From Limisphaerales bacterium (GTDB taxonomy: Bacteria > Pseudomonadota > Alphaproteobacteria > Rhodobacterales > Rhodobacteraceae), in assembly GCA_044356825.1 (NCBI GenBank), contig JBIKVM010000001.1, positions 1 to 51,395 of the forward strand: a DNA stretch of 51,395 nucleotides, written 5' to 3'. The notes under the pieces are model-generated. The model made no database searches. It saw only the letters and a list, made by a program, of their open reading frames with translations, and was not told where the DNA came from. Positions 2,267 to 40,421 of the stretch are shown one piece after another (within the stretch, counting starts at the first letter, position 1; each line of letters begins with the position of its first letter). Position numbers and translations under genes: made by a program.

Positions 2267-2267
2267 T

Positions 2268-2281
2268 GTCAAATTCCTGAC
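2268..2281. promoter_or_regulatory. GTCA-N6-TGAC palindrome (GTCAAATTCCTGAC), weaker member of the recurrent box
   Basis: Perfect 4+4 inverted arms nested in a larger imperfect palindrome (GCCTGTCA...TGACGCAGGC). Starts 2 nt after the candidate motA sigma54 promoter. Matches the TGTCGGAATTCCGACA consensus at 10/16 positions. Confidence 0.35.
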
Positions 2282-2381
2282 GCAGGCACCGGATGGCGAG
2301 TTCTATCGTCAATCTGCCCGAGATGGTATGAATCTTGGATGAACACCGGGCTAGGTGTGCCCCTCAACATGGGAGTCTGAA

Positions 2382-3146
2382 ATGGATCTCGCTACACTCA
2401 TCGGACTGACGGGTGCGTTGGCCTGTATCATCGGCTCGCTCTTCGCCGGGGGGGGGACACTCGGGCCTTTCATCGACATCCCGTCCATCTTGATCGTGGT
2501 CTTCGGAACCTTGTTCACGGCGATGTACACAAAGCCGCTGCCGATCTTCCTGTCGCACTTCGGAGCGATGGCGAAGGCCTTTCTGCCGCCGGTCAAGAAG
2601 ATGGACGTCATGATCAAGCGCATGGTCGAGTTGTCGGCGATAGCGCGCAAGGACGGGATGATGGCGCTCGAAGGACAGGCCGTGCCCGACAAGTTCTTCG
2701 AGAAGGGCCTGCAGATGCTGGTCGACGGCGCGGATGAAAAGAAGCTCGTCTCGCAGCTGACGGCCGAGATCAAGTCGATGAAGAGCCGCCACGCCGCCAA
2801 CCAGCAGTGCGTCAAGGCGTGGATCGACCTCGCACCCGCGATGGGGATGATCGGGACCCTGATCGGCCTCGTGCTGATGCTCGGCAACATGGGCGACCCG
2901 AAATCGATCGGCCCCGCCATGGCGGTGGCGCTGCTGACGACGCTTTACGGGGCGTTGCTAGCTAACGTGATGTTCATGCCGATGCTGACCAAGCTCGAGG
3001 GCTACACGGAATACGAGGTGACATACCGCGAAGCGGTTGTCGAAGGTCTGCGTGGCATCGCCCGCGGTGACAGCCCGCGCAACATCCAGGACGTTATGGC
3101 AACGAACCTGCCGCCCAAGATGCAGGCCAAGCTCGAAGCCGCGTGA
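2382..3146 (+). CDS. motA: Flagellar stator protein MotA, 254 aa
   Basis: ATG at 2382 with GGGAG six nt upstream; the ORF-track GTG at 2355 is less likely. Four TM segments. MotA/TolQ/ExbB signature: APAMGMIGTLIGLVLML, PAMAVALLTTLYGALLANV. Confidence 0.9.
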   Translation: MDLATLIGLTGALACIIGSLFAGGGTLGPFIDIPSILIVVFGTLFTAMYTKPLPIFLSHFGAMAKAFLPPVKKMDVMIKRMVELSAIARKDGMMALEGQAVPDKFFEKGLQMLVDGADEKKLVSQLTAEIKSMKSRHAANQQCVKAWIDLAPAMGMIGTLIGLVLMLGNMGDPKSIGPAMAVALLTTLYGALLANVMFMPMLTKLEGYTEYEVTYREAVVEGLRGIARGDSPRNIQDVMATNLPPKMQAKLEAA

Positions 3147-3179
3147 TAGCGGCGAGCGCCGGACCAGAAGGAACGCACC

Positions 3180-4418
3180 ATGGCCGCCAAGGCAGCCGAA
3201 GTCGAGGAAGTCGAGGAAGCCCCGGCAGAGGACTGCCCGAAGTGCCCGCCGGTCGGCGCACCGGCATGGATGGCGACTTTTGCCGACATGGCAACGTTGC
3301 TCATGGCATTCTTCGTGCTGATATTGTCCTTCGCCGAATTCAACGTTCCCAAGTTCAAGCAGATCTCGGGTTCGTTGCAGAACGCATTCGGTGTGCAGAA
3401 GATCGTGCCCGTGGTGGAACAACCACAGGGCACGACGCTCTTGCAGCTTGAGTTCAGCCCATCGCCCAGCCCATCGCTCACCAACGAGATGACGCAGCAG
3501 ACGACCGAACTGCAACAGCCCGAGCTTGAGCTTCAGACCAAGACCGAGGATGCCGTGGACGGCGACACGGCAAGCCGTGACGGCGAGGCTGAAGGAACTG
3601 GCGGCAAGGCCGGTCAGACCGGAGAAGCCGGCTCGGACGGCGAGATGGACGCTCAGGCGCTGGCCTCGGCGCTGCAGGAAGCCATCGAGAGCGGCGAAGT
3701 GCAGGTCGAAATGAACGGCGAGAATGTCGTCGTCAACTTCCCCTCCGAAGATACCGAATCCAAGGATCTGCCATCGCTCGTGAAAGAAACGCTCGCGGCT
3801 CTGGCCGAAGCGCGGCAGGCCTCTGGCCAGGCTGAGACCGAAGTTCTCTTCGGAGGACTGGAGCAGCAGTTGGCCCAACTCGCGGCTGCGGCCGACCAGG
3901 CCGCGAGCGGCCAGGGAGAAAGCCCGACGCCCGAGACAGCCGAGGCTGCGGCCCAGGCCGAAGCGGCGGCAGCACAGGCGAGCGCGGCGGTCGATCAGCT
4001 TCAGGTGGCGCTGCGCGAAGAGATCGCACAGGGGCTTGTCGAGGTCGAGCAGCGCGACGGCAAGGTCTATGTCACCGTCGGTGCAGGGGGCGCGTTTCCG
4101 TCCGGGTCGGCCGACCTCACCGCCGATGCCGTCAACATCATGAACCGCATCGCCTTCGCCTCGATGAGCAGCGAGAGCACGATCACCGTCGCGGGCCACA
4201 CCGACGACGTGCCGATCTCGACCTCGCTCTTCCGCGACAACTGGGATCTCGCAGCCGGGCGGGCGGCGAGCGTCGTGCAGGCGATCCAGGCCACGGGCCT
4301 TGTCGATGGCGGCCGGATGCGGGCTGTAAGCTATGGCGAGACGAAGCCCGTCGAGGACAACGCCACCCCCGAGGGTCGCGAACGCAACCGGCGGATCGAG
4401 ATCGAGATCGAATACTGA
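3180..4418 (+). CDS. motB: Flagellar stator protein MotB, 412 aa, with a long acidic/Ala-rich linker
   Basis: N-terminal TM segment with the conserved Asp (PAWMATFADMATLLMAFFVLILSF). C-terminal OmpA-like peptidoglycan-binding domain (ITVAGHTDDVPI, NWDLAAGRAASV, NRRIEIEIEY). AGAAGGAA Shine-Dalgarno sequence. Confidence 0.9.
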   Translation: MAAKAAEVEEVEEAPAEDCPKCPPVGAPAWMATFADMATLLMAFFVLILSFAEFNVPKFKQISGSLQNAFGVQKIVPVVEQPQGTTLLQLEFSPSPSPSLTNEMTQQTTELQQPELELQTKTEDAVDGDTASRDGEAEGTGGKAGQTGEAGSDGEMDAQALASALQEAIESGEVQVEMNGENVVVNFPSEDTESKDLPSLVKETLAALAEARQASGQAETEVLFGGLEQQLAQLAAAADQAASGQGESPTPETAEAAAQAEAAAAQASAAVDQLQVALREEIAQGLVEVEQRDGKVYVTVGAGGAFPSGSADLTADAVNIMNRIAFASMSSESTITVAGHTDDVPISTSLFRDNWDLAAGRAASVVQAIQATGLVDGGRMRAVSYGETKPVEDNATPEGRERNRRIEIEIEY

Positions 4419-4429
4419 GGCGCTGCGCG

Positions 4430-4457
4430 CTAACGCTTCGCGCCGCGCCGTCGTTTC
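4430..4457 (+). promoter_or_regulatory. Candidate sigma28 promoter of fliD: CTAAC-N15-GTCGTTTC
   Basis: GCTAACGCTTCGCGCCGCGCCGTCGTTTCAGACC. Identical -35/-10 words and spacing to the flgM element. Leaves a leader of about 25 nt containing GAAGGA before ATG 4488. Confidence 0.45.
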
Positions 4458-4487
4458 AGACCGAGAAGGACCAACAGGGCGGAACCG

Positions 4488-6062
4488 ATGGCTGTCGACT
4501 ATCTGAGCGCGCTGAACTCCCGCGGATCGGGCCTGAACATCACCCAGATCGTGGGCTCGCTCGTCGATGCCGAGATCGTTCCCAAGCGCTCGCAGATCGA
4601 GAAGCAGATCGAGGAAAACGACCTCTCGATCTCGGAACTTGGAAAGCTCAGGGCCGAACTCTCGTCGCTGTCGTCCTCGCTGGCCGTCACGGGTGCGGGC
4701 CAGGCCTATGACGCGCGCAGCGGCTCGAGCGCGATCGCGATCGCGATCACCGACGCGTCCAAAGCAACCGCCTTTGATTCCAGCCTGCGCGTCACCCAAC
4801 TCGCAGCAGCACAAGTGGTGGAGTATTCGGGCTTTGCCAGCGCCTTGGCGACAGTGACGGCCGGTACCCTTCAGGTCAGCGTCGGCGGCGGTGCCACGAC
4901 AACCCTGACGATCAGCGCGGGCGACACGATATCGGACGTCGCTGACGCGCTCGATGACCTCGACGGTGTCTCGGCGAGCGTGGTCGCAACCGGGACAAAC
5001 GCCTATTCCATCATCGTGAAGTCCGAGATCGGCGCGTCGAAGGCAGTCACGATCAACGCGACCGACGCAACCGCGATCGGACTCGGAACAGCGGTGGTAA
5101 AAGTACCGGCAACCGACGCGATCCTCACGCTCGATGGCATCACTGTCACCCGGGGCAGCAACGTGATCTCGGACCTCGTCCCGGGGGCGACGCTGACGCT
5201 GACCGACACGATGACATCCGCAACGCGCGTGCAACTCGAGGAACGTCAGGACATCGCACTGGCCGAGCTGAAGGCGCTTGTCGAGCGGTTGAACGAGACC
5301 AAGAGCCTCATCGCAGAGGCCACCAAGCGCGGTATCAACGGTGCGGCATCGGGGCCTTTGGTCGGCGATCCGACGATCATGGCAATCGGGCGTCGCCTTG
5401 CGGCGATCACGACGCAGCCGATCGTGGGCTTTGCGGCCGATCCCGTCTATCTCTCGCAAATCGGGGTGCGCACGCAGCGCGACGGCACGCTCGAGGTCGA
5501 CGAGGCGACGTTCAACGCCGCCTACGAGACCAACCGGCACATCTATCGAGCGGTGTTCCAGAGCCTGAACCAGACGACGACCAGCGGGATAACGGTGCGC
5601 ACGACGGCCAATGCCAAACCACCGGCCGGGGTCTATGCGTTCGACTACGTCAATTCCACTACGGCGACGCTGAACGGCACATCCCTGATCGTGCGCTCTG
5701 GAGTCTCGCCCGCCAAGGAATTCTACGCGGCAACCGGCACCTTCGCAGGTGTCACGATCCGGCTCGAAGACGGGATCGAGCAAGACACGACGGTGATGAT
5801 CGGCAAGAGCGTTCTCTCGCAGATCCGCGACTTTGCCGACACGCTGATTGCCAAGACGGGCGACATCACCCTGCGCGAGAAGAAGTTCACGGAAAAGGGG
5901 TTTGAACTCGGCGACGCGCTCACGGATCTCAAGGACCGCGAGGATACCGCCCGCCAGCGCTACTTCGCGCGCTTCACTGCGATGGAACAGATCGTGACCC
6001 GGGTCAAGGGGACGGGCGAATACATGCAATCCATCATGGATGCATGGAACAAGCAGGAGTGA
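4488..6062 (+). CDS. fliD: Flagellar filament cap protein FliD, 524 aa
   Basis: N-terminal FliD heptad region (MAVDYLSALNSRGSGLNITQIVGSLVDAE...IEENDLSISELGKLRAEL). C-terminal FliD region (RYFARFTAMEQIVTRVKGTGEYMQSIM). Confidence 0.9.
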   Translation: MAVDYLSALNSRGSGLNITQIVGSLVDAEIVPKRSQIEKQIEENDLSISELGKLRAELSSLSSSLAVTGAGQAYDARSGSSAIAIAITDASKATAFDSSLRVTQLAAAQVVEYSGFASALATVTAGTLQVSVGGGATTTLTISAGDTISDVADALDDLDGVSASVVATGTNAYSIIVKSEIGASKAVTINATDATAIGLGTAVVKVPATDAILTLDGITVTRGSNVISDLVPGATLTLTDTMTSATRVQLEERQDIALAELKALVERLNETKSLIAEATKRGINGAASGPLVGDPTIMAIGRRLAAITTQPIVGFAADPVYLSQIGVRTQRDGTLEVDEATFNAAYETNRHIYRAVFQSLNQTTTSGITVRTTANAKPPAGVYAFDYVNSTTATLNGTSLIVRSGVSPAKEFYAATGTFAGVTIRLEDGIEQDTTVMIGKSVLSQIRDFADTLIAKTGDITLREKKFTEKGFELGDALTDLKDREDTARQRYFARFTAMEQIVTRVKGTGEYMQSIMDAWNKQE

Positions 6063-7531: not shown

Positions 7532-7547
7532 GGCAACGCCGCCGCCA
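7532..7547 (-). promoter_or_regulatory. Candidate sigma54 promoter: TGGCGG-cggcg-TTGCC
   Basis: Correct GG-N10-GC spacing on the minus strand. About 50 nt upstream of ATG 7468. Back to back with the plus-strand promoter at 7557. Confidence 0.4.
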
Positions 7548-7556
7548 TGCCCGTCG

Positions 7557-7572
7557 TGGCACGCAAGTTGCT
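7557..7572 (+). promoter_or_regulatory. sigma54 promoter: TGGCAC-gcaag-TTGCT
   Basis: Full match to TGGCAC-N5-TTGCW. Followed by AGGAGA (7591-7596) and ATG 7603. Confidence 0.6.
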
Positions 7573-14653: not shown

Positions 14654-14669
14654 GGCAAGATTCGCGCCA
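14654..14669 (-). promoter_or_regulatory. Candidate internal sigma54 promoter in front of fliO: TGGCGC-gaatc-TTGCC
   Basis: Correct GG-N10-GC spacing. Lies in the unusual 172-nt fliN-fliO gap, about 26 nt upstream of ATG 14617. Confidence 0.5.
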
Positions 14670-14743: not shown

Positions 14744-14759
14744 CGTCGGAGTTCCGACA
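14744..14759. promoter_or_regulatory. Palindromic box cGTCGGAGTTCCGACA (14/16 to consensus)
   Basis: Arms GTCGGA/TCCGAC are perfect. Centred about 108 bp upstream of the predicted fliO sigma54 transcription start, which is a typical enhancer distance. Confidence 0.45.
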
Positions 14760-22541: not shown

Positions 22542-22586
22542 TGCTCGCTCCGTCGCCGCGCCCCCGCTTCGGGGGGCGCCCCTGTG

Positions 22587-24728: not shown

Positions 24729-25916
24729 CTAATAGGCCATGCCGGCCACACGACGGCCGAAGGCGGTTTCATCGCGCCGCAGACGCAATCCGTCGGAGGG
24801 CGCATCGACGATGATGTCAGTTGCGGTTATGACCCCCTCGGCATGCAGCACGAGCGCCCGCTGCATCACGTTCTCGAGTTCGCGCACGTTGCCCGGCCAG
24901 TCATGGGCCAGCAACAGCGCGACCGCATCCTCGCCGAGCATCGGCATTGGCGTGCCGGGCGGGCAATGCTTGCGCAAGAGCGCGGCCGCGATCGCCACGA
25001 TATCGTCGCGCCGCTCCGCGAGCGCGCGCGTCGCCAGCGGAAAGACGTTCAAGCGATAGAAGAGATCCTCGCGGAAGCGGTTCTGGCGGACTTCTTCGTG
25101 GATGTCGCGGTTCGTCGTCGCGACGATGCGGACATCGACCTTGATCTCCGCCTGGCCGCCAAGCGGGGTCACGGTGCGCTCCTGCAGCACGCGCAAGAGC
25201 TTCGATTGCAGCCCGAGCGGCATCTCGGAAATCTCGTCCAGCAGCAGCGTGCCCCCCTCGGCGGCGCGGAAGATCCCCTTGTTGGCAAGCGACGCGCCGG
25301 TGAACGCACCCTTCTCGTGGCCAAACAGCACGGCCTCGAGCATGTTCTCGGGGATCGCGGCACAGTTGATCGCGACAAAGGGGTTGCCCCGGCGGACCGA
25401 GCGCAGATGGACATAGCGCGCGAGCACTTCCTTGCCGGTCCCCGTCGGTCCGTTGACGAAGACCGTCACGTCCGATCGCGCAACGCGGTCTGCAAGTTCC
25501 ATCAGCCGCGTCGTCGAGGGATCGGCCGCGATCATGTTCGAGGTTTCGGCACACAGGACGTCCGCGGCATGGAGCAGCGCGAAATCCTGCGCGAGCGGCA
25601 GGCCGGCGCGCGCAGTCGGCAGGCCCATCCGGATTACCCGGCCGCCCAGCTCGGTTTCGCAGACAAGGGTCGCGGCAGACTCGTCGAGGATCACGACAAG
25701 ACGAGGCCGCAGTGGCCGAAGCCGCTCAGTCAGCGCGCGCAACCCGCCGGCCGCGGCAACTGCGGCGGCCCCGCATGCATAGGCTGCCCCTGGTTGCACG
25801 CCGGGATCTCGGCCAGGATCGGCCGAAACCACCGCCCGGACCTTGCGGCGGGAAATCGCCTCGGCGAGCCGTTCGGCTGCAGCGAACCCGTTTGCATCGA
25901 TCACGACGTCGGACAT
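24729..25916 (-). CDS. fleT: sigma54 enhancer-binding protein without a DNA-binding domain (FleT-like), 395 aa
   Basis: Internal ATG 25916 with GGGAG at 8-nt spacing. AAA+ core: GPTGTGKE, GAFTGA (HEKGAFTGA), VRELEN. About 130 aa of N-terminal domain. Only about 45 aa follow the AAA+ core, with no Fis-type HTH. It is the first gene of the fliEFGHIJ operon, as described for R. sphaeroides fleT. Confidence 0.8.
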   Translation of the reverse strand: MSDVVIDANGFAAAERLAEAISRRKVRAVVSADPGRDPGVQPGAAYACGAAAVAAAGGLRALTERLRPLRPRLVVILDESAATLVCETELGGRVIRMGLPTARAGLPLAQDFALLHAADVLCAETSNMIAADPSTTRLMELADRVARSDVTVFVNGPTGTGKEVLARYVHLRSVRRGNPFVAINCAAIPENMLEAVLFGHEKGAFTGASLANKGIFRAAEGGTLLLDEISEMPLGLQSKLLRVLQERTVTPLGGQAEIKVDVRIVATTNRDIHEEVRQNRFREDLFYRLNVFPLATRALAERRDDIVAIAAALLRKHCPPGTPMPMLGEDAVALLLAHDWPGNVRELENVMQRALVLHAEGVITATDIIVDAPSDGLRLRRDETAFGRRVAGMAY

Positions 25917-25946
25917 CTTGCGCACTCCCTTGCGTCTCAAAGGAAA

Positions 25947-25962
25947 GGCAAGAAGCGGGCCA
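25947..25962 (-). promoter_or_regulatory. sigma54 promoter of fleT-fliE operon: TGGCCC-gcttc-TTGCC
   Basis: Correct GG-N10-GC spacing. The predicted transcription start is about 20 nt upstream of ATG 25916. Confidence 0.55.
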
Positions 25963-25976
25963 ACCCCCGCAGGGCC

Positions 25977-25992
25977 TGTCGGAATGCCCCGA
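25977..25992. promoter_or_regulatory. Palindromic box TGTCGGAATGCCCCGA (12/16; left half perfect)
   Basis: Immediately upstream of the fleT sigma54 promoter. Confidence 0.35.
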
Positions 25993-26002
25993 TCAAAGCA
26001 CA

Positions 26003-26015: not shown

Positions 26016-26077
26016 TATATAAATTATTCAGGATTTGTCTGGACTGCGGAACAGCGCCCGGAACGGGCTTTGATCGG

Positions 26078-26093
26078 TGTCGGAAACACGTCA
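26078..26093. promoter_or_regulatory. Palindromic box TGTCGGAAACACGTCA (12/16)
   Basis: About 150 bp upstream of the fleT transcription start. Embedded in the GGTGT...ACACC inverted repeat. Confidence 0.35.
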
Positions 26094-26129: not shown

Positions 26130-26145
26130 CGTCGGGAATCCGCCG
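26130..26145. promoter_or_regulatory. Palindromic box cGTCGGGAATCCGCCg (11/16)
   Basis: About 200 bp upstream of the fleT transcription start, just downstream of the fliL-like stop codon. Confidence 0.3.
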
Positions 26146-27530: not shown

Positions 27531-27558
27531 GAAACGACCGCAGACTAGTTCATGTTAG
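27531..27558 (-). promoter_or_regulatory. Candidate sigma28 promoter of flgM: CTAAC-N15-GTCGTTTC
   Basis: Minus strand reads CGCTAACATGAACTAGTCTGCGGTCGTTTCCCATCGCGTAAGGAGG. Overlaps the 3' end of flgA, as the class 3 flgM promoter does in enterics. Confidence 0.5.
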
Positions 27559-29131
27559 CGATGGGACGTATTTTTTCCGAGCCTTCGACGACGCCCTGGA
27601 TGATCTCGCCGGAAGAAACGTTCTCGACCTCGATGATGTCACCCAGTTGGCCGTTGCCGACGGCGCGGCCGGGTGTCACGATCTCGAAGCCGCCGATCGC
27701 ATTCACGATCATGAGCGGATTGCCCTCGCGCACGAGCCAGTCGTAATCGAGGTGCCGGGCGTGGAGCGCGCGCCCCTCACCGAGCGTCTGGGTCAGCGTG
27801 CGCCCGATCACGTCGGATGCGTTCGTGAACAGCCCGGTAGAGGCCTTCTGCGGCGCCGGGATCATCATAACATCGTCCTCGGTCAGAACCGCCCCCTTGC
27901 GCAGGCTGCGCCGGAGCGCCGCGACGACGACACCCGAGCTGGCCGCGTCCGCAGCCTTCTCGCCGGTGTTGGCCTCAGCGGCAGGGGCCGGCATCGCTTC
28001 GGCCGCCTCGGCCTCTAGAGCCGCAACCGCCGTTGCATCGGGCAAGGGTGAGGACAGGTTCGTCCGCACGAGCAGCGACCACTCGAAGGGCGTCGTGCAG
28101 CGCACCGTGACCATGCTCCAGTCGGTTCCGTTGCGCGGTTCTGCACCGAGGGGTTCGGAGCAGGGATAGAAGCGCCGGGTCGCGGGGATCACGGGCTCGC
28201 CACGCAGGCCGGCAGCCTGCAGGAGGTCGATCACCGCCGCTTCGACATGTGCGGCCGTGACATCGAAGGCCCCGGTTGCATCGGCGGCCGTTGCGGCGTC
28301 CTCGACGGTGCGCACATAGACGGCCCATTCGAGCGGTTCGGAGCAACGCACCTCGACCGTCCGCCAGTCCGAGCCGAAGCGCGGCGCGGCCTTGAGTTCG
28401 CTCGAGCAGGGAAAGAAGCGGCGCAGGCGCGACACGAGCGGGGTCGCGGCGATCCCCTCTTCGCTCAGCGCACGCCTGACCGCGGCCTCGATGTCGGTGG
28501 CGGTCGCGCGCGGTGCCGAGTCAAGCGCGGTTGTGCTCGCGGGGCCCCGGCGGGCAACGGTTCGGACATTGAGCGACCAGCGCGCCGGGGCGGGGCAACT
28601 GACGGCAACCGTCCGCCAATCACCCTCGATCCGCGGCGCGACATCGAGCGGTGCCGCACAGGGGTAGAAGACGCGCGACTGGTTCACGACCGGCACGGCA
28701 TCAAGCGCCGCCGCATCGAGTTTGGCCTGAACCGCCGCGACGATCTCTGCTGCATCAACCTGCCGGACGGGATCGGGGACTCCCGCGGCATCGGCCGGCA
28801 GCGCAGCGCCGCTGCGGACCATCACCGACCAGCGGACAGGCGCCGGGCAGGTGACGTTGACAGTGCGCCAGTCGTCGCCATTGCGCGGCGTGACCTCGAG
28901 TGGCGCGCCGCAAGGATTGAACTGGCGCCCGGGCGGAATCACGGGGTCGGCCTCGTAGCCCTGCTCCTGAAGGACGCGGCGGACGCGCGCAGCTACCTCG
29001 GCACCCGAGACGACCTGTGCCCCGGCCATCTGCTCGGCCAGGGTGGGGGGCGGATCCTGTTCGGGCGCCGACACCGCGGGCCCTGCCGCGAGACAGGCCA
29101 TGAGCGCGAGGACGAAGCGGCGGATCGCCAT
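27545..29131 (-). CDS. flgA: P-ring assembly chaperone FlgA, expanded to 528 aa with a fourfold-repeated N-terminal domain
   Basis: Internal ATG 29131 with a signal peptide (MAIRRFVLALMACLAAGPAVSA). C-terminal SAF/FlgA region: LRKGAVLTEDDV...VREGNPLMIV...GDIIEVENVSSGEIIQGVV. Preceded by four modules that match the FlgA N-terminal domain pattern (PC..PL...W..V.V.C....W...VR). Confidence 0.85.
   Translation of the reverse strand: MAIRRFVLALMACLAAGPAVSAPEQDPPPTLAEQMAGAQVVSGAEVAARVRRVLQEQGYEADPVIPPGRQFNPCGAPLEVTPRNGDDWRTVNVTCPAPVRWSVMVRSGAALPADAAGVPDPVRQVDAAEIVAAVQAKLDAAALDAVPVVNQSRVFYPCAAPLDVAPRIEGDWRTVAVSCPAPARWSLNVRTVARRGPASTTALDSAPRATATDIEAAVRRALSEEGIAATPLVSRLRRFFPCSSELKAAPRFGSDWRTVEVRCSEPLEWAVYVRTVEDAATAADATGAFDVTAAHVEAAVIDLLQAAGLRGEPVIPATRRFYPCSEPLGAEPRNGTDWSMVTVRCTTPFEWSLLVRTNLSSPLPDATAVAALEAEAAEAMPAPAAEANTGEKAADAASSGVVVAALRRSLRKGAVLTEDDVMMIPAPQKASTGLFTNASDVIGRTLTQTLGEGRALHARHLDYDWLVREGNPLMIVNAIGGFEIVTPGRAVGNGQLGDIIEVENVSSGEIIQGVVEGSEKIRPIANMN
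28061..29014 (-). repeat. Four tandem coding repeats of about 82-84 codons inside flgA
   Basis: Cys pairs at residues 74/95, 158/179, 242/263 and 324/345. Shared pattern: V..V...L...G....PV....R.F.PC..PL...PR.G.DWRTV.V.C..P..WS..VRT. Confidence 0.7.
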
Positions 29132-30861: not shown

Positions 30862-30877
30862 TGCACGAACCGTGCCA
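30862..30877 (-). promoter_or_regulatory. sigma54 promoter of flgP operon: TGGCAC-ggttc-GTGCA
   Basis: Correct spacing. The predicted transcription start is about 25 nt upstream of TTG 30826. Confidence 0.6.
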
Positions 30878-30918: not shown

Positions 30919-30934
30919 TGGCACAGGTTTTGCT
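30919..30934 (+). promoter_or_regulatory. sigma54 promoter of flhA operon: TGGCAC-aggtt-TTGCT
   Basis: Full consensus match. Divergent from the flgP promoter 42 nt away. About 140-nt leader to ATG 31086. Confidence 0.65.
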
Positions 30935-31056: not shown

Positions 31057-31072
31057 CGGCGGGATTCCGACA
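31057..31072. promoter_or_regulatory. Palindromic box cGGCGGGATTCCGACA (13/16)
   Basis: Lies in the flhA leader, about 213 bp upstream of the flgP transcription start. The right half-site is perfect and is followed by CCGACAGTCGG. Confidence 0.4.
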
Positions 31073-31085
31073 GTCGGTGCCTGTC

Positions 31086-33212
31086 ATGGAACTGACACGC
31101 GGCCGGATGGTCCCAGGCGATCTGCGCGGCGCCCTCGGAAGCGCGATCCTTCCGATCGGCATCCTCGCCGTCGTCGCGATGATGGTGCTGCCGCTGCCGG
31201 TCATGCTGCTCGACATGTTCTTCGTCGTGAACATCCTCGTTTCGCTGCTCATCCTGCTCGTGGCGATGCACACCTATCGTCCGGTCGATTTCTCGTCCTT
31301 CCCCACGGTGCTCCTGATCGCGACGATCCTCAGGCTCGCGCTCAACGTGGCCTCGACACGCATCGTGCTGGCCGAGGGGCACACGGGCGATGATGCGGCC
31401 GGACAGGTCATCAAGTCGTTCGGCGAGTTCGTGATCGCAGGCAACTACGTGGTCGGGATCTTCGTCTTCGCGATCCTCGTCATCATCAACCTCATCGTCA
31501 TCACCAAGGGCGCGGGGCGCGTGTCCGAAGTTTCGGCGCGCTTCACGCTCGATGCGTTGCCCGGCAAGCAGATGGCGATCGACGCCGACCTCAACGCAGG
31601 GCTCCTGACGGCCGAGGAGGCGACGAAGCGCCGCCAGGAAGTCGCGCAAGAGGCGGACTTCTACGGCTCGATGGATGGTGCATCGAAATTCGTGAAGGGC
31701 GACGCGATCGCAGGCCTTCTCATCCTTGCCATCAACATCGTCGGCGGTCTCATCATCGGGACTGTACAGCATGGGCTGGGCATCGGCGAAGCGGCCGAGA
31801 TCTACATCCTGCTCTCGATCGGCGACGGCCTCGTCGCGCAGATCCCCTCGCTCCTGCTCTCGATCGCGACCGCGATCATCGTGACGCGCGTCTCCTCGAC
31901 CGAGGACATGGCCGAGCACATTGGAAAACAGGTAAATCTCTCGCGCGCCTGGATCCCTTCGGCGTTGGTGATGTTCATTCTCGGCGTGACGCCGGGGATG
32001 CCCAACCAGCTCTTCCTGACCTTCGCGGCGCTGGCGGCGGGGGCAGGCTATCTGGCCCGCCGAGCCGAAATCGCGCGCGCCGAGGAACCCGAGGAAGAAC
32101 CCGAGGCCGCCGCTGGTGAAGGCCCGGCGAAAGAGGCGATCACGCTCGAGGATGTCACCGACTATTCTCCGGTCTCGCTCCAGCTCGGCTATGGCCTCAT
32201 CTCGATGGTGGATGGCGACGAGGGCAGCCCCCTTGTCACCCGTATCACCGGGATCCGGCGCGAGGTGTCGCGCGCGCTCGGTTTCGTCGTGCCCGGCGTG
32301 CGCATCCGCGACGACCTCGGGCTCGAGCCCAACCAGTACCGCATCCGCATCGGCCAGACGATCGTCGGCGAGGATCGAGTCTTTCCCGACCGCAAGCTCG
32401 CGCTCGCGGGGGATCGGACGGCGGTCAGGATCGACGGGGTCGAGGTCAAGGATCCGTCGTTCGGAATGGACGCGACCTGGATCCGCCCGCAGCAGCAGGC
32501 CGAGGCCGAGGCGAACGACTATGTCGTGATCGAGCCCGAGTCGGTCCTTGCGACGCACCTCAGCCAGCTTCTCTACAAGCACGCGGCCGAACTCGTGGGG
32601 CAGGACGATGTGCAGGCGCTGGTCGACAACCTCGCCAAGAACAGCCCCAACCTCGTGCAATCGGTCGTGCCGAAACTCGTGCCGCTGCATGTGCTGACGG
32701 CGGTGCTGCGCGCGCTCCTGCACGAGCGGATCCCGATCGCGGACCTGCGGCGGATCCTCGAGGGGCTCGCGAACCTCTCGAACCGCAATGCCCCGCCGAC
32801 AGAGATGGCCGAGGCACTGCGGCCCGCACTTGTGCCGCTCCTCATCCAGCAGGTGGCGCCGCTCGGTAAGCCGCTGCCCGTCATCACCCTGACGCCCGAC
32901 CTCGAGCAGCTCCTGCTGCGGACCCTGCGCCAGTCGAGCGAGGGCGAGCTCGTCCTCGAGGGCGAGCTTGCCCAGCAGCTCGTGACCTCGATCAACGAGA
33001 CATCCGAGCGGATGTCGGCCGAGGGAAAGCCCGGCGTCACCGTCGTCGCACCCCAGATCCGGCGCGCCTTCGCCGCCTTCCTGCGCGGCCACATGCCCGA
33101 CGCCATCGTGCTGAGCTATACTGAACTGCCCGAAAACCGCCGTGTCGAGGTCGCCGCGACCATCGGCGGGGCGGGTGCGCTGCCCCGCGAAACCGGCCCC
33201 AAGACCAGATGA
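31086..33212 (+). CDS. flhA: Flagellar export apparatus protein FlhA, 708 aa
   Basis: Internal ATG 31086. Conserved FlhA N-terminus (LPLPVMLLDMFFVVNILVSLLILLVAM, FPTVLLIATILRLALNVASTRIVL), FHIPEP region, and C-terminal cytoplasmic domain. Confidence 0.95.
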   Translation: MELTRGRMVPGDLRGALGSAILPIGILAVVAMMVLPLPVMLLDMFFVVNILVSLLILLVAMHTYRPVDFSSFPTVLLIATILRLALNVASTRIVLAEGHTGDDAAGQVIKSFGEFVIAGNYVVGIFVFAILVIINLIVITKGAGRVSEVSARFTLDALPGKQMAIDADLNAGLLTAEEATKRRQEVAQEADFYGSMDGASKFVKGDAIAGLLILAINIVGGLIIGTVQHGLGIGEAAEIYILLSIGDGLVAQIPSLLLSIATAIIVTRVSSTEDMAEHIGKQVNLSRAWIPSALVMFILGVTPGMPNQLFLTFAALAAGAGYLARRAEIARAEEPEEEPEAAAGEGPAKEAITLEDVTDYSPVSLQLGYGLISMVDGDEGSPLVTRITGIRREVSRALGFVVPGVRIRDDLGLEPNQYRIRIGQTIVGEDRVFPDRKLALAGDRTAVRIDGVEVKDPSFGMDATWIRPQQQAEAEANDYVVIEPESVLATHLSQLLYKHAAELVGQDDVQALVDNLAKNSPNLVQSVVPKLVPLHVLTAVLRALLHERIPIADLRRILEGLANLSNRNAPPTEMAEALRPALVPLLIQQVAPLGKPLPVITLTPDLEQLLLRTLRQSSEGELVLEGELAQQLVTSINETSERMSAEGKPGVTVVAPQIRRAFAAFLRGHMPDAIVLSYTELPENRRVEVAATIGGAGALPRETGPKTR

Positions 33213-34628: not shown

Positions 34629-36344
34629 ATGCCCCAGTCGATCACCATAGCCAGCGGCAAGGGCGGCGTCGGCAAGACCTGCATCGCGGTCAACCTCGCG
34701 CTCACGCTCGCGGCGATGGGGCTGCGGGTGAAGTTGCTCGATGCCGATTTCGGGCTGGCCAATTCGCATGTGCTCATGGGGATCAACAGCACGAAGTCGA
34801 TCCGCGACGTCATCACCGGAGAGCGCTCGCTGGTCGAAATCGCCGAGCGGGTCGCGCCGCGGCTCGACTTGCTCGCGGGCGGCAGCGCGCTGTCGGAGTT
34901 GCTCAATGTCGATCCGACGGTCCGCTATCGGCTGATCCGCAACTTCGACGCGATGGCCGACGATACCGACGTGCTGCTCATCGATGCGCCGGCGGGAGCG
35001 TCGGACAATGCGCTGTCCTTCGTCGTCGCGGCGGACCGGGTCGTGGTCGTGATTGTGCCTGAACCGACAAGCTTCATGGACGCCTATGCCCTGATCAAGA
35101 CCGCAAACCTCGATCATGGGCTCGAGCGGTTCTCGATCGTCGTCAACATGGCCGCCAACGAGACCGAGGCGGCGCGCCATTTCGAGAAGTTCCGCGCGAT
35201 CGCGATGCGCTTTCTGGCGGTCGAATTGACCCATGTCGGGCATGTGCCGCTCTCGAACGCGCTCAGCCGGTCGGTTGTGGCCCTGAAGCCCATCATGCAG
35301 GGCGGCGGCAATCCGGCATCGCCCGAGGGGGCGGCGTTCCGCAAGCTTGCCAACGGCATCCTGCACGCGCCCGTGAACCCGCCCCGCGGCATCCGTTTCT
35401 TCGAAGGAACCGACGGCGCACCCGCTTTGCCGCGGCTCGTACCGGAGCCTGCGCAGGCGGCCGCACCCCAAGTGGCGGCGGCTGCCGATCCGGCGCCCGA
35501 AGTGCCGGGAGCCGCGCAGGGCGACACCGTGACGGGCATCCTCGTGCGGCTCCATGATGCGCTTGCCGGGTTGCGCCAGTCGATGGCAACCGAACCTGCG
35601 GCAGCTGCGGCCGCGCTTGAAACCAATCGGATCCTTGCCTCGGGCTTCGACCCCGACCTTGCGCGGACCCTCGCGCGGGTCGATGCCGGGGCGGCTCCGG
35701 CCCCCGCATTCGCACGCGCGCTTGCCACCCAACTTGCGCACGAGGCCCCCCTCGATCTGCTCGGCGCACCCGCAGTCATGGTGCTTGGGCCGTCGGGTGC
35801 CGGGCGGACGACGGTTGCGGCCAAGCTCGCGGCCTTCATGTCGGCGGCGATGCCGGGCCGGCGGGCGGCGCTCGTGAACGTGGTGGCGCGTGACGGCGGC
35901 GATGACGGCCGGCTGCGGATGCTCGCCACGCGTATTGGCGCGGCGGCGGATTTCACGGTCTGGACCGAGGACGATTCCGAGACTCTGCCGCTCGGTTCCG
36001 ACATCACCCATATCCTCGACATGCCGCCCGGCCCGAAGGACTGCGTGCGACTTGCCGGGCGCTTCGCGGCCGCGTTCGGTCCGGCGGCGGTGCTGCCGCT
36101 GCTGGTGCTGCCGGGCGGGTCGAGTGCCTCGCTCGTTTCGCGCCAGCTTGCCCGGATCGATCCCTCGCGTGGCGCAGTCATTCTCTCGAAACTCGACGAG
36201 TGTCCGGCCGATCCGGGCGAACTTCTGGCGCTCGCGCAGGCGGGGGCGCGGGTCGGGTGGCTGTCGCAGGGGCGGGCGGCTGGGCTTGGCATCGTGCCCG
36301 TGACGCCCGCCCTCATGCACGATCACATTGCAGGTGCATCATGA
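34629..36344 (+). CDS. flhG: FlhG/FleN MinD-type ATPase fused in frame to a second FlhF-like NG domain, 571 aa
   Basis: ATG 34629 with AAGGGGG upstream. Residues 1-260 are FleN-like: deviant Walker A SGKGGVGKT, LLDADFGLAN, EPTSFMDAYALIK. A Pro/Ala linker follows. Residues about 300-571 are paralogous to the C-terminal part of the preceding FlhF: VLGPSGAGRTT, HILDMPPGP, SKLDEC. Confidence 0.8.
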   Translation: MPQSITIASGKGGVGKTCIAVNLALTLAAMGLRVKLLDADFGLANSHVLMGINSTKSIRDVITGERSLVEIAERVAPRLDLLAGGSALSELLNVDPTVRYRLIRNFDAMADDTDVLLIDAPAGASDNALSFVVAADRVVVVIVPEPTSFMDAYALIKTANLDHGLERFSIVVNMAANETEAARHFEKFRAIAMRFLAVELTHVGHVPLSNALSRSVVALKPIMQGGGNPASPEGAAFRKLANGILHAPVNPPRGIRFFEGTDGAPALPRLVPEPAQAAAPQVAAAADPAPEVPGAAQGDTVTGILVRLHDALAGLRQSMATEPAAAAAALETNRILASGFDPDLARTLARVDAGAAPAPAFARALATQLAHEAPLDLLGAPAVMVLGPSGAGRTTVAAKLAAFMSAAMPGRRAALVNVVARDGGDDGRLRMLATRIGAAADFTVWTEDDSETLPLGSDITHILDMPPGPKDCVRLAGRFAAAFGPAAVLPLLVLPGGSSASLVSRQLARIDPSRGAVILSKLDECPADPGELLALAQAGARVGWLSQGRAAGLGIVPVTPALMHDHIAGAS

Positions 36345-37496: not shown

Positions 37497-38996
37497 TCAG
37501 ACCTGACCGGCCATCACCGCCTTGCGCCTGCGCTCGAACGACGAGGGGATGTTGAGCATCTCGCGGTACTTCGCCGCCGTCCGCCGCGCGAGGTTCACCC
37601 CCTCGGCCTTCATCATCCGCACGATGGCGTCATCGCTGTAGGGGGCATCGGCGGGTTCGCCCTCGATCAGTTTGCGGATGCGGAACTTGACCGCCGAGGC
37701 GGCATCGGCCCCCTCGCCCGAGGTCGAGGACGGCAGTCCCACGCTGAAGAAGGTCTTGAGGCGGAAGGTCCCGAGCGGGGTCGCCATCATCAGGCCCGAG
37801 GTCACGCGGCTGACGGTGCTTTCGTGTACGCCGACGGCTTCGGCGACGTCGCGCAGCACGAGCGGGCGCAGATAGCCGAGGCCCTTTTCGAGGAATGCCT
37901 CCTGCTGGCGCACGATCTCAGCGCCGATGCGCAGGGTGGTGGCGTTGCGCTGCGCGATGGCGCGGCGCAGCCAGTTGGCATCCGCGACACGCTCGCGCGC
38001 AAAGCCGCGCGCGGCATCGGCTGCAGGGTTGGCGGCCTTGCCCGCAAGCACCGACTGGGCGAAGCCGCGGTTGACCTGCACCGACGGCAGGGTTGAGCGG
38101 TTGAGGTCCACGATCCAGCCATCCGGGCCGCGCCGCACGATCAGGTCGGGCGGCGTGATCGGATCGGCGACCTGCTCGAACTGCATCCCGGGTTTGGGGT
38201 CGAGGGTGCGCAGCGCGCGCAGCATCTCGCGCAGGGAATCGGCATCGACGCCGCAGGTGCGCGCGAGCGATTTCATGTTGCCCGAAGCGAGCAGCGGCAG
38301 GTTCTCGAGCAGCGCGGCGAAGGCGGGCGTCAGCATCCCCCGTTCAGCCGCCTGAAGGCGCAGGCATTCGGAAAGGCTGCGCGCGAAAATCCCGGCGGGC
38401 TCGATGCCCTGCAGCCGCTTCAGCACCGCCTCGACCTCGGCACCCGGCACGCCGAGCGCCATCGCGACCTCATCGACGGTCGGGCCGAGCCAGCCCGTGG
38501 GCTCCAGCCCGTCGGCCAGTGCAAGCGCGATGATGCGCTGTGCGGGGTGGGCGAAGATGAGGTCGATCTGCGTCGCGACATGATCGTAAAGCGAGCGTTC
38601 GCCCTGCGCCACGCTGCCCGAGATCGCGTCGAAATCGTCCCCCTCGTCGTCGCGCCGGCGCCCGCCGGTGCCGAGGTCGATCCGGTCGGTCTCGAAGGTG
38701 TTGGCATAGCCCTCGGCGCAGATCGGGCCGTCATCGGGGATCGCGGCCGCGCCGATCGGCGCGTCGATCGCCTCGGGGGCGGCCTCGGCCGTGGCCTGCG
38801 GCGCCTCGGGCGCAAGGATCGGCGCGTCGCGTTCGCCCTCGGCCACCTCGATGAAGGGGTTCTCCTCGGCCTGCTGGTCGAGGAAGGCGCGCAACTCGAG
38901 GTTCGACATCTGCAGAAGCCGGATCGCCTGCTGCAACTGCGTCGTGATGACGAGCGACTGCTTTTGCCGCAACTGCTGGGACGTGAAGATCTGCAT
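37497..38996 (-). CDS. rpoN: RNA polymerase sigma-54 factor, 499 aa
   Basis: Internal ATG 38996 with GGAGGT upstream. Region I (LRQKQSLVITTQLQQAIRLLQMSNLEL). C-terminal HTH and RpoN box (ARRTAAKYRE). Confidence 0.93.
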   Translation of the reverse strand: MQIFTSQQLRQKQSLVITTQLQQAIRLLQMSNLELRAFLDQQAEENPFIEVAEGERDAPILAPEAPQATAEAAPEAIDAPIGAAAIPDDGPICAEGYANTFETDRIDLGTGGRRRDDEGDDFDAISGSVAQGERSLYDHVATQIDLIFAHPAQRIIALALADGLEPTGWLGPTVDEVAMALGVPGAEVEAVLKRLQGIEPAGIFARSLSECLRLQAAERGMLTPAFAALLENLPLLASGNMKSLARTCGVDADSLREMLRALRTLDPKPGMQFEQVADPITPPDLIVRRGPDGWIVDLNRSTLPSVQVNRGFAQSVLAGKAANPAADAARGFARERVADANWLRRAIAQRNATTLRIGAEIVRQQEAFLEKGLGYLRPLVLRDVAEAVGVHESTVSRVTSGLMMATPLGTFRLKTFFSVGLPSSTSGEGADAASAVKFRIRKLIEGEPADAPYSDDAIVRMMKAEGVNLARRTAAKYREMLNIPSSFERRRKAVMAGQV

Positions 38997-39068
38997 GGGC
39001 CTACCTCCGGTTGCAGGCAGGATCGGCAATCGGCCCGGTTTTTGCAAACAATCAATTTGACAGGGCAA

Positions 39069-39084
39069 TGTCGGAATTCCGACA
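39069..39084. promoter_or_regulatory. Perfect 16-bp palindrome TGTCGGAATTCCGACA
   Basis: Lies in the fleQ-rpoN intergenic region, centred 80 bp upstream of the rpoN ATG. It is the best copy of the motif recurring in flagellar control regions. Confidence 0.5.
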
Positions 39085-39152
39085 ATTTAGCCTCATGTAA
39101 TCATTGAATTTTTTTTGGCACTGCCTGCAGTGGCGGGAATTTGACCCCGACT

Positions 39153-40262
39153 CTAGATGTCCTCGGTCGCCGCCATGGCGGGGCGCTCGATCATCAGCTT
39201 CTTCATCTTCTCGATCAGGGTCGTGCGCCGCAGCTTCAGCACTGCCGCCGCCCGGCTGACGAAACCGTTGTGCTTTTCGAGCGCGGCCTCGATCAGCACC
39301 ACTTCGATGTCGCGCACATGCCGGCGCAGGTCGATCTCGTCGTGGTGGTCGAACCAGCCGCGATAGGCGGTGACCTGCGCATCCTCGCTCGGGGCTCCGA
39401 GGTTGCGGCCCACCCCGCCGAGGTTCGTGAACTCCGACCAGACCTCGGCCTGCTCGGCGGCCTGCCGCGCCGCATCGGGCACCCGCAGCAGGAGGAGGTT
39501 CTCGCGCACGTTCTGCCCCGAGACAGGGCGGCCGGGAAAGAGGATGAAGGCGCGATCGACGACGTTGCGCAACTCGCGCACGTTGCCGGGCCAGGCGCAG
39601 GTCGCCAGCGTCTGCATCGCCGAGGCGTCGAACTCGGGCGCGACCGCGGCGGGATCCATGCGGCAGCGGTCGGCGATCATCGCGGCGACGATCTCGGGAA
39701 TGTCCGAGGCGCGCTCGGCCAGGCTCGGCACCTCGATCGGAAAGACGTTCAGTCGGTAATAGAGATCGGCACGGAACTCGCCCGAGGCGACCTTGGCATC
39801 GAGATTGCGGTGCGTCGCGCAGACGAGCCGGAGATCGAGCGCGATATCCTCGCGCCCGCCGATGCGCTGCAGCGCGCGCGTCTCGAGCACGCGCAGGAGC
39901 TTCGATTGCAGCGCCAGCGGCATGTCCCCGATCTCGTCGAGAAAGAGCGTCCCGCCCTGTGCCTGTTCGAAGCGGCCCTGCCGCTGACGGTCGGCGCCGG
40001 TAAAAGCGCCCTTTTCGTAGCCGAAGAGCTCGGACTCGAGCAACTCTGACGGGATCGCGGCACAATTGAGCGCGACGAGGCGCCCGCGCCGGCCGCTTTC
40101 GGCATGGATCGCCTGCGCCACGAGTTCCTTGCCCGCACCGGTCGGACCGAGCACGAGGACCGTACCGATCGACGGGGCGACGGTTGAAATGAGTTGACGC
40201 ACGCGCTCGATGGCGGGCGAGGAGCCGATGATCGGCGTCCGGCCTGTTCCTGCGTCGGTCAT
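39153..40262 (-). CDS. fleQ: sigma54 enhancer-binding protein FleQ-like (AAA+ plus Fis-type HTH, no N-terminal domain), 369 aa
   Basis: ATG 40262. The AAA+ core starts about 10 residues in (IIGSSPAIERV, GPTGAGKE, YEKGAFTGA, VRELRN). C-terminal HTH: FVSRAAAVLKLRRTTLIEKMKKL. Confidence 0.85.
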   Translation of the reverse strand: MTDAGTGRTPIIGSSPAIERVRQLISTVAPSIGTVLVLGPTGAGKELVAQAIHAESGRRGRLVALNCAAIPSELLESELFGYEKGAFTGADRQRQGRFEQAQGGTLFLDEIGDMPLALQSKLLRVLETRALQRIGGREDIALDLRLVCATHRNLDAKVASGEFRADLYYRLNVFPIEVPSLAERASDIPEIVAAMIADRCRMDPAAVAPEFDASAMQTLATCAWPGNVRELRNVVDRAFILFPGRPVSGQNVRENLLLLRVPDAARQAAEQAEVWSEFTNLGGVGRNLGAPSEDAQVTAYRGWFDHHDEIDLRRHVRDIEVVLIEAALEKHNGFVSRAAAVLKLRRTTLIEKMKKLMIERPAMAATEDI

Positions 40263-40332: not shown

Positions 40333-40348
40333 CGTCGGTTTTCCGGCA
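40333..40348. promoter_or_regulatory. Palindromic box cGTCGGTTTTCCGGCa (12/16)
   Basis: About 78 bp upstream of the fleQ ATG. Preceded by ATTTC, as is the box at 40406. Confidence 0.35.
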
Positions 40349-40405: not shown

Positions 40406-40421
40406 CGTCGGAATTCAGTCT
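40406..40421. promoter_or_regulatory. Palindromic box cGTCGGAATTCAGTCt (12/16)
   Basis: About 151 bp upstream of the fleQ ATG. Shares the direct repeat ATTTCGTCGG with the box at 40333. Confidence 0.35.

Follow-up and report, generated by a model that had tools for sequence, protein, structure and literature searches.

Upstream activating sequences (UAS) of FleQ and FleQ-FleT are known from the fla1 flagellar regulon of Cereibacter (Rhodobacter) sphaeroides (Poggio 2005; Pena-Sanchez 2009). In this organism FleQ acts with the sigma-54 paralogue RpoN2 to activate the fleT operon directly, and FleQ/FleT activates the later classes of flagellar genes (PMC7277832; PMC11999139). For the FleQ proteins of Pseudomonas, binding-site consensus sequences have been proposed, GTCaNTAAAtTGAC in Pseudomonas aeruginosa, which has the GTC-N8-GAC frame attributed to it in a sequence-only reading of the DNA described below, and GTCAaAAAAtTGAC in Pseudomonas putida, but the consensus is regarded as unreliable genome-wide and the genome-wide studies settled none (PMC6120874). 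Here we describe a perfect 16-bp palindrome, TGTCGGAATTCCGACA, in a stretch of 51,395 nucleotides (hereafter the window; contig JBIKVM010000001.1, positions 1 to 51,395) from a member of the Rhodobacteraceae deposited as Limisphaerales bacterium. The window has a G+C content of 66.8% and encodes a fla1-type flagellar island whose organisation matches the C. sphaeroides FleQ/FleT/RpoN2 system (PMC7277832; PMC11999139): its FleQ bears a helix-turn-helix (HTH) whereas its FleT does not, there is a dedicated rpoN, and the divergent flhA and flgA promoters (flhAp and flgAp) lie about 40-55 bp apart, as in C. sphaeroides. The palindrome was confirmed at the position at which it had first been noticed, between the stop codon of fleQ and the start codon of rpoN, and it is probably the strongest copy of an operator for the adjacent FleQ-like sigma-54 activator. 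The motif of which it is a copy proves to be a genuine cis-element with specificity for flagellar control regions, and it is probably the counterpart, in the Gemmobacter lineage, of the C. sphaeroides FleQ or FleQ-FleT UAS.

A mismatch scan of the window recovered all the copies listed in the sequence-only reading at the scores given there, although two of them, both 10/16, had been placed out of register and start one base earlier, at 2267 and 7575 instead of 2268 and 7576. Three matches with at most three mismatches to the palindrome were observed against 0.24 expected. At a threshold of at least 12/16, 7 matches fall in the 3,017 bp of flagellar intergenic DNA as against 3 in the 48,378 bp elsewhere (Fisher p=2.5e-7), and the 0.7 kb of non-flagellar intergenic DNA in the window contains none, so that within the window the motif is concentrated in flagellar intergenic DNA when set against coding and non-flagellar sequence. 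The earlier claim that every copy lies in an intergenic or leader region thus holds as a concentration but not as complete confinement, since the scan of coding sequence adds matches: three further ones at 12/16, located at 22585 (the fliF/fliG junction), 33765 (within flhF) and 50956 (within a non-flagellar gene), and about 15 at 11/16, mostly coding. The intergenic share of the window, which had been put at about 5%, amounts to 7.3% on the gene map. Nor can the 10/16 copies be counted as signal, as 69 such matches occur in the window and by score alone they are indistinguishable from chance; the one at 2267, TGTCAAATTCCTGACG, is nevertheless of a recurring variant class, TGTCAAATTCCCG.CA, that is met again at a second site upstream of rpoN (site A, see below) and upstream of fleQ in Plastorhodobacter.

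An unbiased word count over the flagellar intergenic regions of the window led to the same element. GTCGGA was the top 6-mer (13 observed, 2.1 expected), and among the 8-mers TGTCGGAA came first (6 observed, 0.10 expected). Both outranked the sigma-54 -24 word GTGCCA, whose second place among the 6-mers indicates that the count picks up real signals. The GTC-N8-GAC frame by itself shows only weak enrichment (7 of 35 occurrences intergenic, p=0.012), so it is the half-site word and not the frame that carries the signal; the frame is intact at 39070, 14745, 2268 and 7576, and most other copies keep one half only. A scan with a position weight matrix built from the listed sites returned 17 hits of at least 8 bits where Markov simulations gave 12.7 +/- 3.2, and weak matches are therefore uninformative. 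From the word counts of the window and its relatives the half-site is best written YGTCRRAAW, the motif also being written YGTCRRAAWWTTYYGACR; in the main class the inner octamer reads GGAATTCC or GGAGTTCC, and the flanks of the copies in the window are unrelated to one another.

The motif was followed into nine related loci (about 135 kb) fetched through homologues of FleQ, FleT and RpoN. These comprise L081, L082 and L166/L167, with FleQ proteins 95%, 77% and 74% identical to that of the window, L172 (FleT 84% identical, window-like synteny), C. sphaeroides WS8N (L173), Plastorhodobacter daqingensis (L174 and L177), Paragemmobacter straminiformis (L175) and L176 (RpoN 65% identical). All matches of at least 12/16 in these loci (11 of 11) lie in flagellar intergenic regions, and neither their 5.9 kb of non-flagellar intergenic DNA nor their coding DNA contains any. 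A de novo word count over the 43 intergenic regions of the relatives placed TCCGACA, GTCGGAAA and TGTCGGAA on top, followed by TGTCAAA(T) and CCTGAC/GTCAGG(A). Among 6-mers, the last of these words ranks third by enrichment in the flagellar intergenic DNA of the window (9 observed, 1.5 expected) and first in the relatives, where 16 occurrences stand against 2.9 expected. It could be a separate signal or else a variant of the half-site longer by one base, for which TGTCAAATTCCTGACG at 2267 and CGTCAGGATTCTGGCA in L176 are examples. Searches with FlhA in the genome collection returned only distant relatives of at most 65% identity in which the motif was not recognisable, and searches with FleQ in metagenomes only generic activators of at most 52% identity. 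Sporadic look-alikes in sphingomonad and other unrelated loci, one of them inside a terminator stem in L023, are not interpretable.

Copies are kept at orthologous positions upstream of rpoN, fleT, fleQ and fliO while their flanks diverge, and a weaker copy is kept in the leader of flhA. Upstream of fleT (window coordinates of all copies are collected in Table 1), the two distal copies have orthologues in L172, CGACGGATATCCGACA at about -161 and CGCCGGAAATCCGACA at about -215, whereas the proximal copy at 25977 is not conserved in the alignment with L172 and is for that reason doubtful. The fleT upstream region of C. sphaeroides WS8N, where FleQ acts, carries the motif with the same half-site as the window, in the form of TGTCGGAAAGCCGCCC at about -192 (12/16), TGACGGTTCTTCGACA at about -153 (11/16) and GGTCAATATCCCGACA at about -128 (11/16). 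In the same region of the window a perfect 11-bp inverted repeat, CCGATCAAAGC at 25989-25999 and GCTTTGATCGG at 26067-26077, flanks an A/T-rich tract (…ctgacttatataaattattcagg…) between the proximal and the middle copy; it is not conserved in L172. The two copies upstream of fleQ together form the direct repeat ATTTCGTCGG; the half-site AAACCGAC of the 40333 copy is conserved in L081 and the 40406 copy poorly so, and the fleQ upstream region of Plastorhodobacter contains TGTCGGAAAACCGACT and TGTCAAATTCCCGTCA. Between fliN and fliO of Paragemmobacter, CGCCGGAATCCGACG lies at about -121 from the fliO promoter (fliOp), with TGCCGGAGTGCCGACA adjoining the promoter. The spacer between flhA and flgA shares only four conserved blocks with L172, namely the two divergent sigma-54 promoters, the ribosome-binding region on the flgA side and the motif copy before the flhA start codon, which in L172 reads TGTCAAAATCCCGGCC. 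Ten base pairs past this copy, TGTCATGGAACTGACA at 31082-31097 overlaps the flhA start codon and shows a perfect TGTC-N8-GACA frame; with CGTCATGGATCTGACA at the same place in L172, it may be another operator or reflect no more than conservation of the coding sequence.

Table 1. Motif copies, candidate promoters and genes of the window referred to in the text.
Feature	Position	Strand	Remarks
Palindrome (site B), TGTCGGAATTCCGACA	39069..39084		68 nt past fleQ stop; centre 80 nt before rpoN ATG
Site A, degenerate second copy, GGTCAAATTCCCGCCA	39131..39146	minus	just past fleQ stop; aligned with relatives
Near-invariant block, TGTCAAATTGATTGTTTG	39045..39062	minus	between palindrome and rpoN
Sigma-70-like rpoN promoter (inferred)	39019..39047	minus	-35 TTGCAA (39042-39047), 17-bp spacer, -10 GATCCT (39019-39024)
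fliN/fliO copy, CGTCGGAGTTCCGACA	14744..14759		14/16; about -108 from candidate fliO sigma-54 promoter
flhA leader copy, CGGCGGGATTCCGACA	31057..31072		13/16; 14 bp before conserved flhA ATG (31086); about +120 from flhAp, about -214 from flgAp
fleT-upstream copy, proximal, TGTCGGAATGCCCCGA	25977..25992		12/16; about -48 from fleT sigma-54 promoter (fleTp)
fleT-upstream copy, middle, TGTCGGAAACACGTCA	26078..26093		12/16; about -150 from fleTp
fleT-upstream copy, distal, CGTCGGGAATCCGCCG	26130..26145		11/16; about -202 from fleTp
fleQ-upstream copy, CGTCGGTTTTCCGGCA	40333..40348		12/16; about 78 bp upstream of fleQ start
fleQ-upstream copy, CGTCGGAATTCAGTCT	40406..40421		12/16; about 151 bp upstream of fleQ
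Weak variant, TGTCAAATTCCTGACG	2267..2282		10/16, GTC-N8-GAC kept; overlaps weak candidate motA sigma-54 promoter region
Candidate sigma-54 promoter of fleT-fliE... operon, TGGCCCGCTTCTTGCC	25947..25962	minus	identical in L172
Candidate fliO sigma-54 promoter, TGGCGCGAATCTTGCC	14654..14669	minus	
Candidate flgAp	30862..30877	minus	conserved in L172
Candidate flhAp	30919..30934	plus	conserved in L172; divergent from flgAp
fleT-like gene	24729..25925	minus	sigma-54 activator without HTH
FlgA homologue, unusually long	27545..29131		528 residues; FlgA domain C-terminal only
MinD/FleN-like gene, unusually long	34629..36344		571 residues
rpoN, flagellar sigma-54 paralogue	37497..38996	minus	first gene downstream of palindrome; NCBIfam sigma-54 models, E=2e-148
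fleQ-like gene	39153..40262	minus	Pfam domains

The palindrome itself is part of a longer conserved module upstream of rpoN. Its companion, site A, is degenerate in the window and has good counterparts in relatives (TGTCGGAAATCAGACA in L082, CGTCGGAAATCAGACG in L167), the two sites being spaced by 62 bp or about six helical turns. In the four loci in which rpoN follows fleQ, the right half of the palindrome, TTCCGAC, is invariant amid diverging flanks, and the left arm has decayed in L082 (GTCAT) and L167 (GCCAA). Far better conserved than the palindrome is the block TGTCAAATTGATTGTTTG between it and rpoN, to which GTCAAATTGAT also refers and whose core, GTCAAATWGAT..TTG, is kept in six rpoN-upstream regions that encode RpoN proteins 56-98% identical to that of the window. 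This block matches no recognised motif; it starts with the variant half-site TGTCAAAT and includes a 9-bp palindrome, TCAAATTGA, and it may be a half-site variant or belong to the rpoN promoter, or serve as both. The -35 TTG, the 17-bp spacing and the -10 GATCCT are conserved in the window, L081, L082 and L167 and are followed by a Shine-Dalgarno sequence and the rpoN start codon. They read as a putative weak sigma-70-like promoter, relative to which the palindrome would be centred at about -64, with site A at about -126.

The footprint upstream of rpoN covers six loci, in one of which rpoN does not follow fleQ. In Plastorhodobacter the gene follows fliC, and the same module is present there (TGTCGGTTTTCCGGCA, then GTCAAATAGAT), from which it follows that the module belongs to rpoN and not to the 3' end of fleQ. 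In Plastorhodobacter (L177, 9825-9840, TGACGGAATCCTGACG) and in a Paracoccaceae metagenome-assembled genome (MAG; L002, 12739-12754, CGTCGAAAATCCGACA), where rpoN also follows fliC, the copy of the motif runs into the fliC stop codon or directly adjoins it, immediately before the intrinsic terminator of fliC. Two promoter-like matches on the plus strand of the fleQ-rpoN spacer were discarded. One is a sigma-70-like TTGACA-18-GACAAT at 39057-39086 (10/12) that is directed into fleQ in antisense; the palindrome falls in its spacer and its -35 in the invariant block, and L082 and L167 do not keep its -10 hexamer. The other is the sigma-54-like CGGCCCGGTTTTTGCA at 39031-39046, the -24 GG of which is likewise not conserved in these two loci.

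The FleQ-like protein, named in the sequence-only reading as the only HTH-bearing sigma-54 activator, is the only HTH-bearing regulator found in the island. It comprises the Pfam domains Sigma54_activat (from residue 11), AAA_lid_14 and HTH_8 (residues 316-356) and has a PspF-like architecture without an N-terminal regulatory domain. The FleT-like protein has no HTH by Pfam, and none of the island proteins of unknown function shows a DNA-binding domain. The HTH segment RRTTLIEKMKKL (…VSRAA.VLKLRRTTLIEKMKKL…) of FleQ is invariant in seven homologues of 62-95% identity, which fits a conserved operator. The proposal that the palindrome is a FleQ site therefore stands as far as the conservation of the motif, its flagellar specificity and the position of FleQ as sole HTH regulator of the island are concerned, and from these sequence data we infer FleQ as the probable binder.

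The positions of several copies agree with what is described for the UAS of the fla1 regulon. At most promoters of C. sphaeroides the UAS is said to lie about 100 bp upstream, with a downstream UAS serving the closely spaced divergent flhAp and flgAp. In the window, too, sites are found some 100-200 bp ahead of sigma-54 promoters and, at flhAp, on the downstream side: the fliO copy, the middle and distal fleT copies (leaving aside the doubtful proximal one) and the flhA leader copy are in enhancer-like positions and fit this placement, which the perfect copy, the fleQ-upstream copies and six of the candidate sigma-54 promoters do not. The term enhancer box given to the motif in the sequence-only reading therefore suits the copies at fliO, fleT and flhA/flgA but not the perfect copy, downstream of which no sigma-54 promoter can be recognised. 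A copy of at least 12/16 within about 320 bp is limited to fliOp, fleTp and the flgAp/flhAp pair. Two further candidate sigma-54 promoters stand back to back at 7532-7572, TGGCGGCGGCGTTGCC on the minus and TGGCACGCAAGTTGCT on the plus strand, 9 bp apart within the 134-bp spacer of two small unknown genes; a 10/16 copy, TGTCAGTCGACCGACG, comes right after the plus-strand one.

If FleQ is the binder, its Fis-type HTH dimer would read two inverted half-sites, 5'-YGTCRRAAW-3', in the GTC-N8-GAC frame. Sites near the promoters of fleT, fliO and flhA/flgA would serve as upstream or downstream activating sequences, from which FleQ, or a FleQ/FleT hetero-oligomer as in C. sphaeroides, would contact the sigma-54 holoenzyme through DNA looping. 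Upstream of rpoN the arrangement would be a different one, made up of site A, the palindrome, the invariant GTCAAATWGAT block and the sigma-70-like -35 and -10 elements with no sigma-54 promoter. As a sigma-54 promoter is missing at the perfect copy, FleQ at about -64 would most likely modulate the transcription of rpoN or read-through from fleQ, and the location of this copy upstream of a putative sigma-70-like promoter suggests feedback of FleQ on its own sigma factor, while the copies upstream of fleQ would allow autoregulation. It is conceivable, if rather doubtful, that the enhancer-binding protein acts here as a classical operator-bound regulator at the non-sigma-54 promoter of its own sigma-54 paralogue, which together with fleQ autoregulation would form a loop setting the on/off state of fla1, and that the dyad provides the first clean recognition code of the FleQ family.

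Several observations weigh against FleQ as the binder or against parts of this scheme. Six of the ten candidate sigma-54 promoters (motA, 7532, 7557, 8898, 10946 and fliK) have no copy of at least 12/16 within about 320 bp, and these may use weaker or different sites. In the 21 kb of C. sphaeroides examined, the fleT upstream region alone has clear copies, the regions upstream of fliK and fliO being without them, in which it differs from the window. The sigma-70-like rpoN promoter is weak (-10 GATCCT) and falls below the threshold of a consensus scan, and neither a promoter scan nor direct reading found a GG-N10-GC site oriented towards rpoN in the stretch from the palindrome to the rpoN start. 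For the flagellar restriction of the motif, the non-flagellar sequence examined amounts to only about 45 kb. Finally, copies of the motif gather at fleQ, rpoN and fleT, the genes of the top tier, a pattern that a separate upstream regulator would produce equally well.

Such a regulator is the most serious alternative, and still an unlikely one: the motif would then be the operator of another DNA-binding protein, global or class-0 and encoded outside the window, that controls fleQ, rpoN, fleT and a few operons, with FleQ using more degenerate sites. This would account for the best and most numerous copies being found at these three genes and not at the bulk of the sigma-54 promoters, for the perfect copy and the fleQ-upstream copies having no sigma-54 promoter nearby, and for the lack of clear copies in class III promoter regions of C. 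sphaeroides. It does not sit easily with the fliO and flhA leader copies, which stand at class III promoters in enhancer-like positions, with a motif that travels with fla1-type clusters across genera while being absent from the 5.9 kb of non-flagellar intergenic DNA, or with the GTC-N8-GAC frame held in common with Pseudomonas FleQ boxes. Furthermore, FleQ acts directly on the C. sphaeroides fleT promoter, where the motif occurs too, and no second HTH protein was found in the island.

Much less probable is an element acting at the RNA level, that is, a hairpin in the 3' untranslated region of fleQ or the 5' region of rpoN serving as terminator, attenuator, or processing or stability element. 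The palindrome does lie between two co-oriented genes, and the predicted fold of the intergenic RNA allows a 6-bp stem, but the fold has a z-score of only -1.57, no U-run follows the palindrome, a terminator scan calls none there and no Rfam family matches. Moreover, the loss of the left arm in L082 and L167 next to an invariant right arm means that pairing is not kept and is not restored by compensatory changes, and most of the other copies are half-sites that cannot fold. An intrinsic terminator or structured RNA, for which stem, U-run and compensatory pairing would be expected together, was rejected on these grounds. Least probable of all is a chance palindrome or a generic intergenic repeat without flagellar role, resembling repetitive extragenic palindromic (REP) sequences or miniature inverted-repeat transposable elements (MITEs), for which the limited amount of non-flagellar DNA checked and the isolated look-alikes in unrelated loci, such as the terminator stem in L023, leave some room, but which is contradicted by the excess and the flagellar location of matches in window and relatives, by their absence from the 0.7 kb and 5.9 kb, respectively, of non-flagellar intergenic DNA in these, by the conserved orthologous positions and by the unrelated flanks with no longer repeated unit.

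A FleQ operator in the window would resemble the Pseudomonas FleQ box in part. Both are 14-bp dyads in the GTC-N8-GAC frame, both occur upstream or downstream of sigma-54 promoters, and variant copies of the window (TGTCAAAT..., TGTCAAATTCC..., TGTCAAAATCC...) approach the A-rich inner sequence of the Pseudomonas box. Pseudomonas FleQ boxes are found at sigma-70 promoters as well. On the protein side, RRTTL.EK is common to the FleQ-type HTHs of the Gammaproteobacteria whose loci were fetched. However, the A/T-rich inner octamer (aNTAAAtT or AaAAAAtT) of the Pseudomonas box is not that of the main class in the window, and the N-terminal FleQ/REC-like domain of Pseudomonas FleQ is absent from the window protein, so that the motif is not a Pseudomonas box in the strict sense. 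It also differs in being sharply enriched where the Pseudomonas consensus performs poorly across genomes. A second known dyad for the Fis-type HTH of a sigma-54 activator is the NifA UAS, TGT-N10-ACA, located 80-150 bp upstream of sigma-54 nif promoters. The perfect copy fits this frame exactly, but most copies in the window start with CGT or end with ACG, and it is the core GTCGG/CCGAC and not the outer TGT/ACA that is conserved. With the frame present in the perfect copy alone, no GG-N10-GC promoter downstream of it and no nif genes in the window, a NifA site was rejected. Full-text searches of the literature for descriptions of the palindrome or the UAS gave no match.

The island itself begins with fliC, an Lcl-like gene, motA, motB, fliD and fliS, followed by several small unknown genes, and continues with flhB-fliRQPO and fliNMLKJIHGFE, the fleT-like gene, the flgA-flgM operon on the minus strand and, divergent from it on the plus strand, flhA-flhF-fleN-fliA; from 40539 on, the genes are unrelated to flagella. 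The FleT-like protein is closest, among named relatives, to one from a Gemmobacter MAG (84% identity, as against 61% for C. sphaeroides FleT), and its N-terminal stretch of about 130 residues has no Pfam match. The genes motA, motB and fliD (2382-6062) lie within the island beside fliC, and the same block of fliC, Lcl-like gene, motAB and fliD is present in L083 and L177, whereas motAB is reported outside the fla1 cluster in C. sphaeroides (PMC7277832). The long FlgA homologue (Table 1) has a counterpart of 529 residues in L172, and the long MinD/FleN-like protein shows a weak FlhF-like match in its C-terminal half.

Beyond the link to rpoN and fleQ, these results amount to a routine prediction of a regulon motif in an uncharacterised bacterium related to Gemmobacter and Cereibacter. 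What seems to be new is confined to the conserved operator module that precedes the flagellar rpoN paralogue and fleQ; neither the rpoN-upstream module nor the fleQ-upstream copies are, to our knowledge, part of the described C. sphaeroides hierarchy. If FleQ binds the dyad, it would represent a clean operator for a minimal FleQ that consists of an AAA+ domain and an HTH only, and it would extend that hierarchy by making FleQ a regulator of the rpoN paralogue as well as of fleQ itself.

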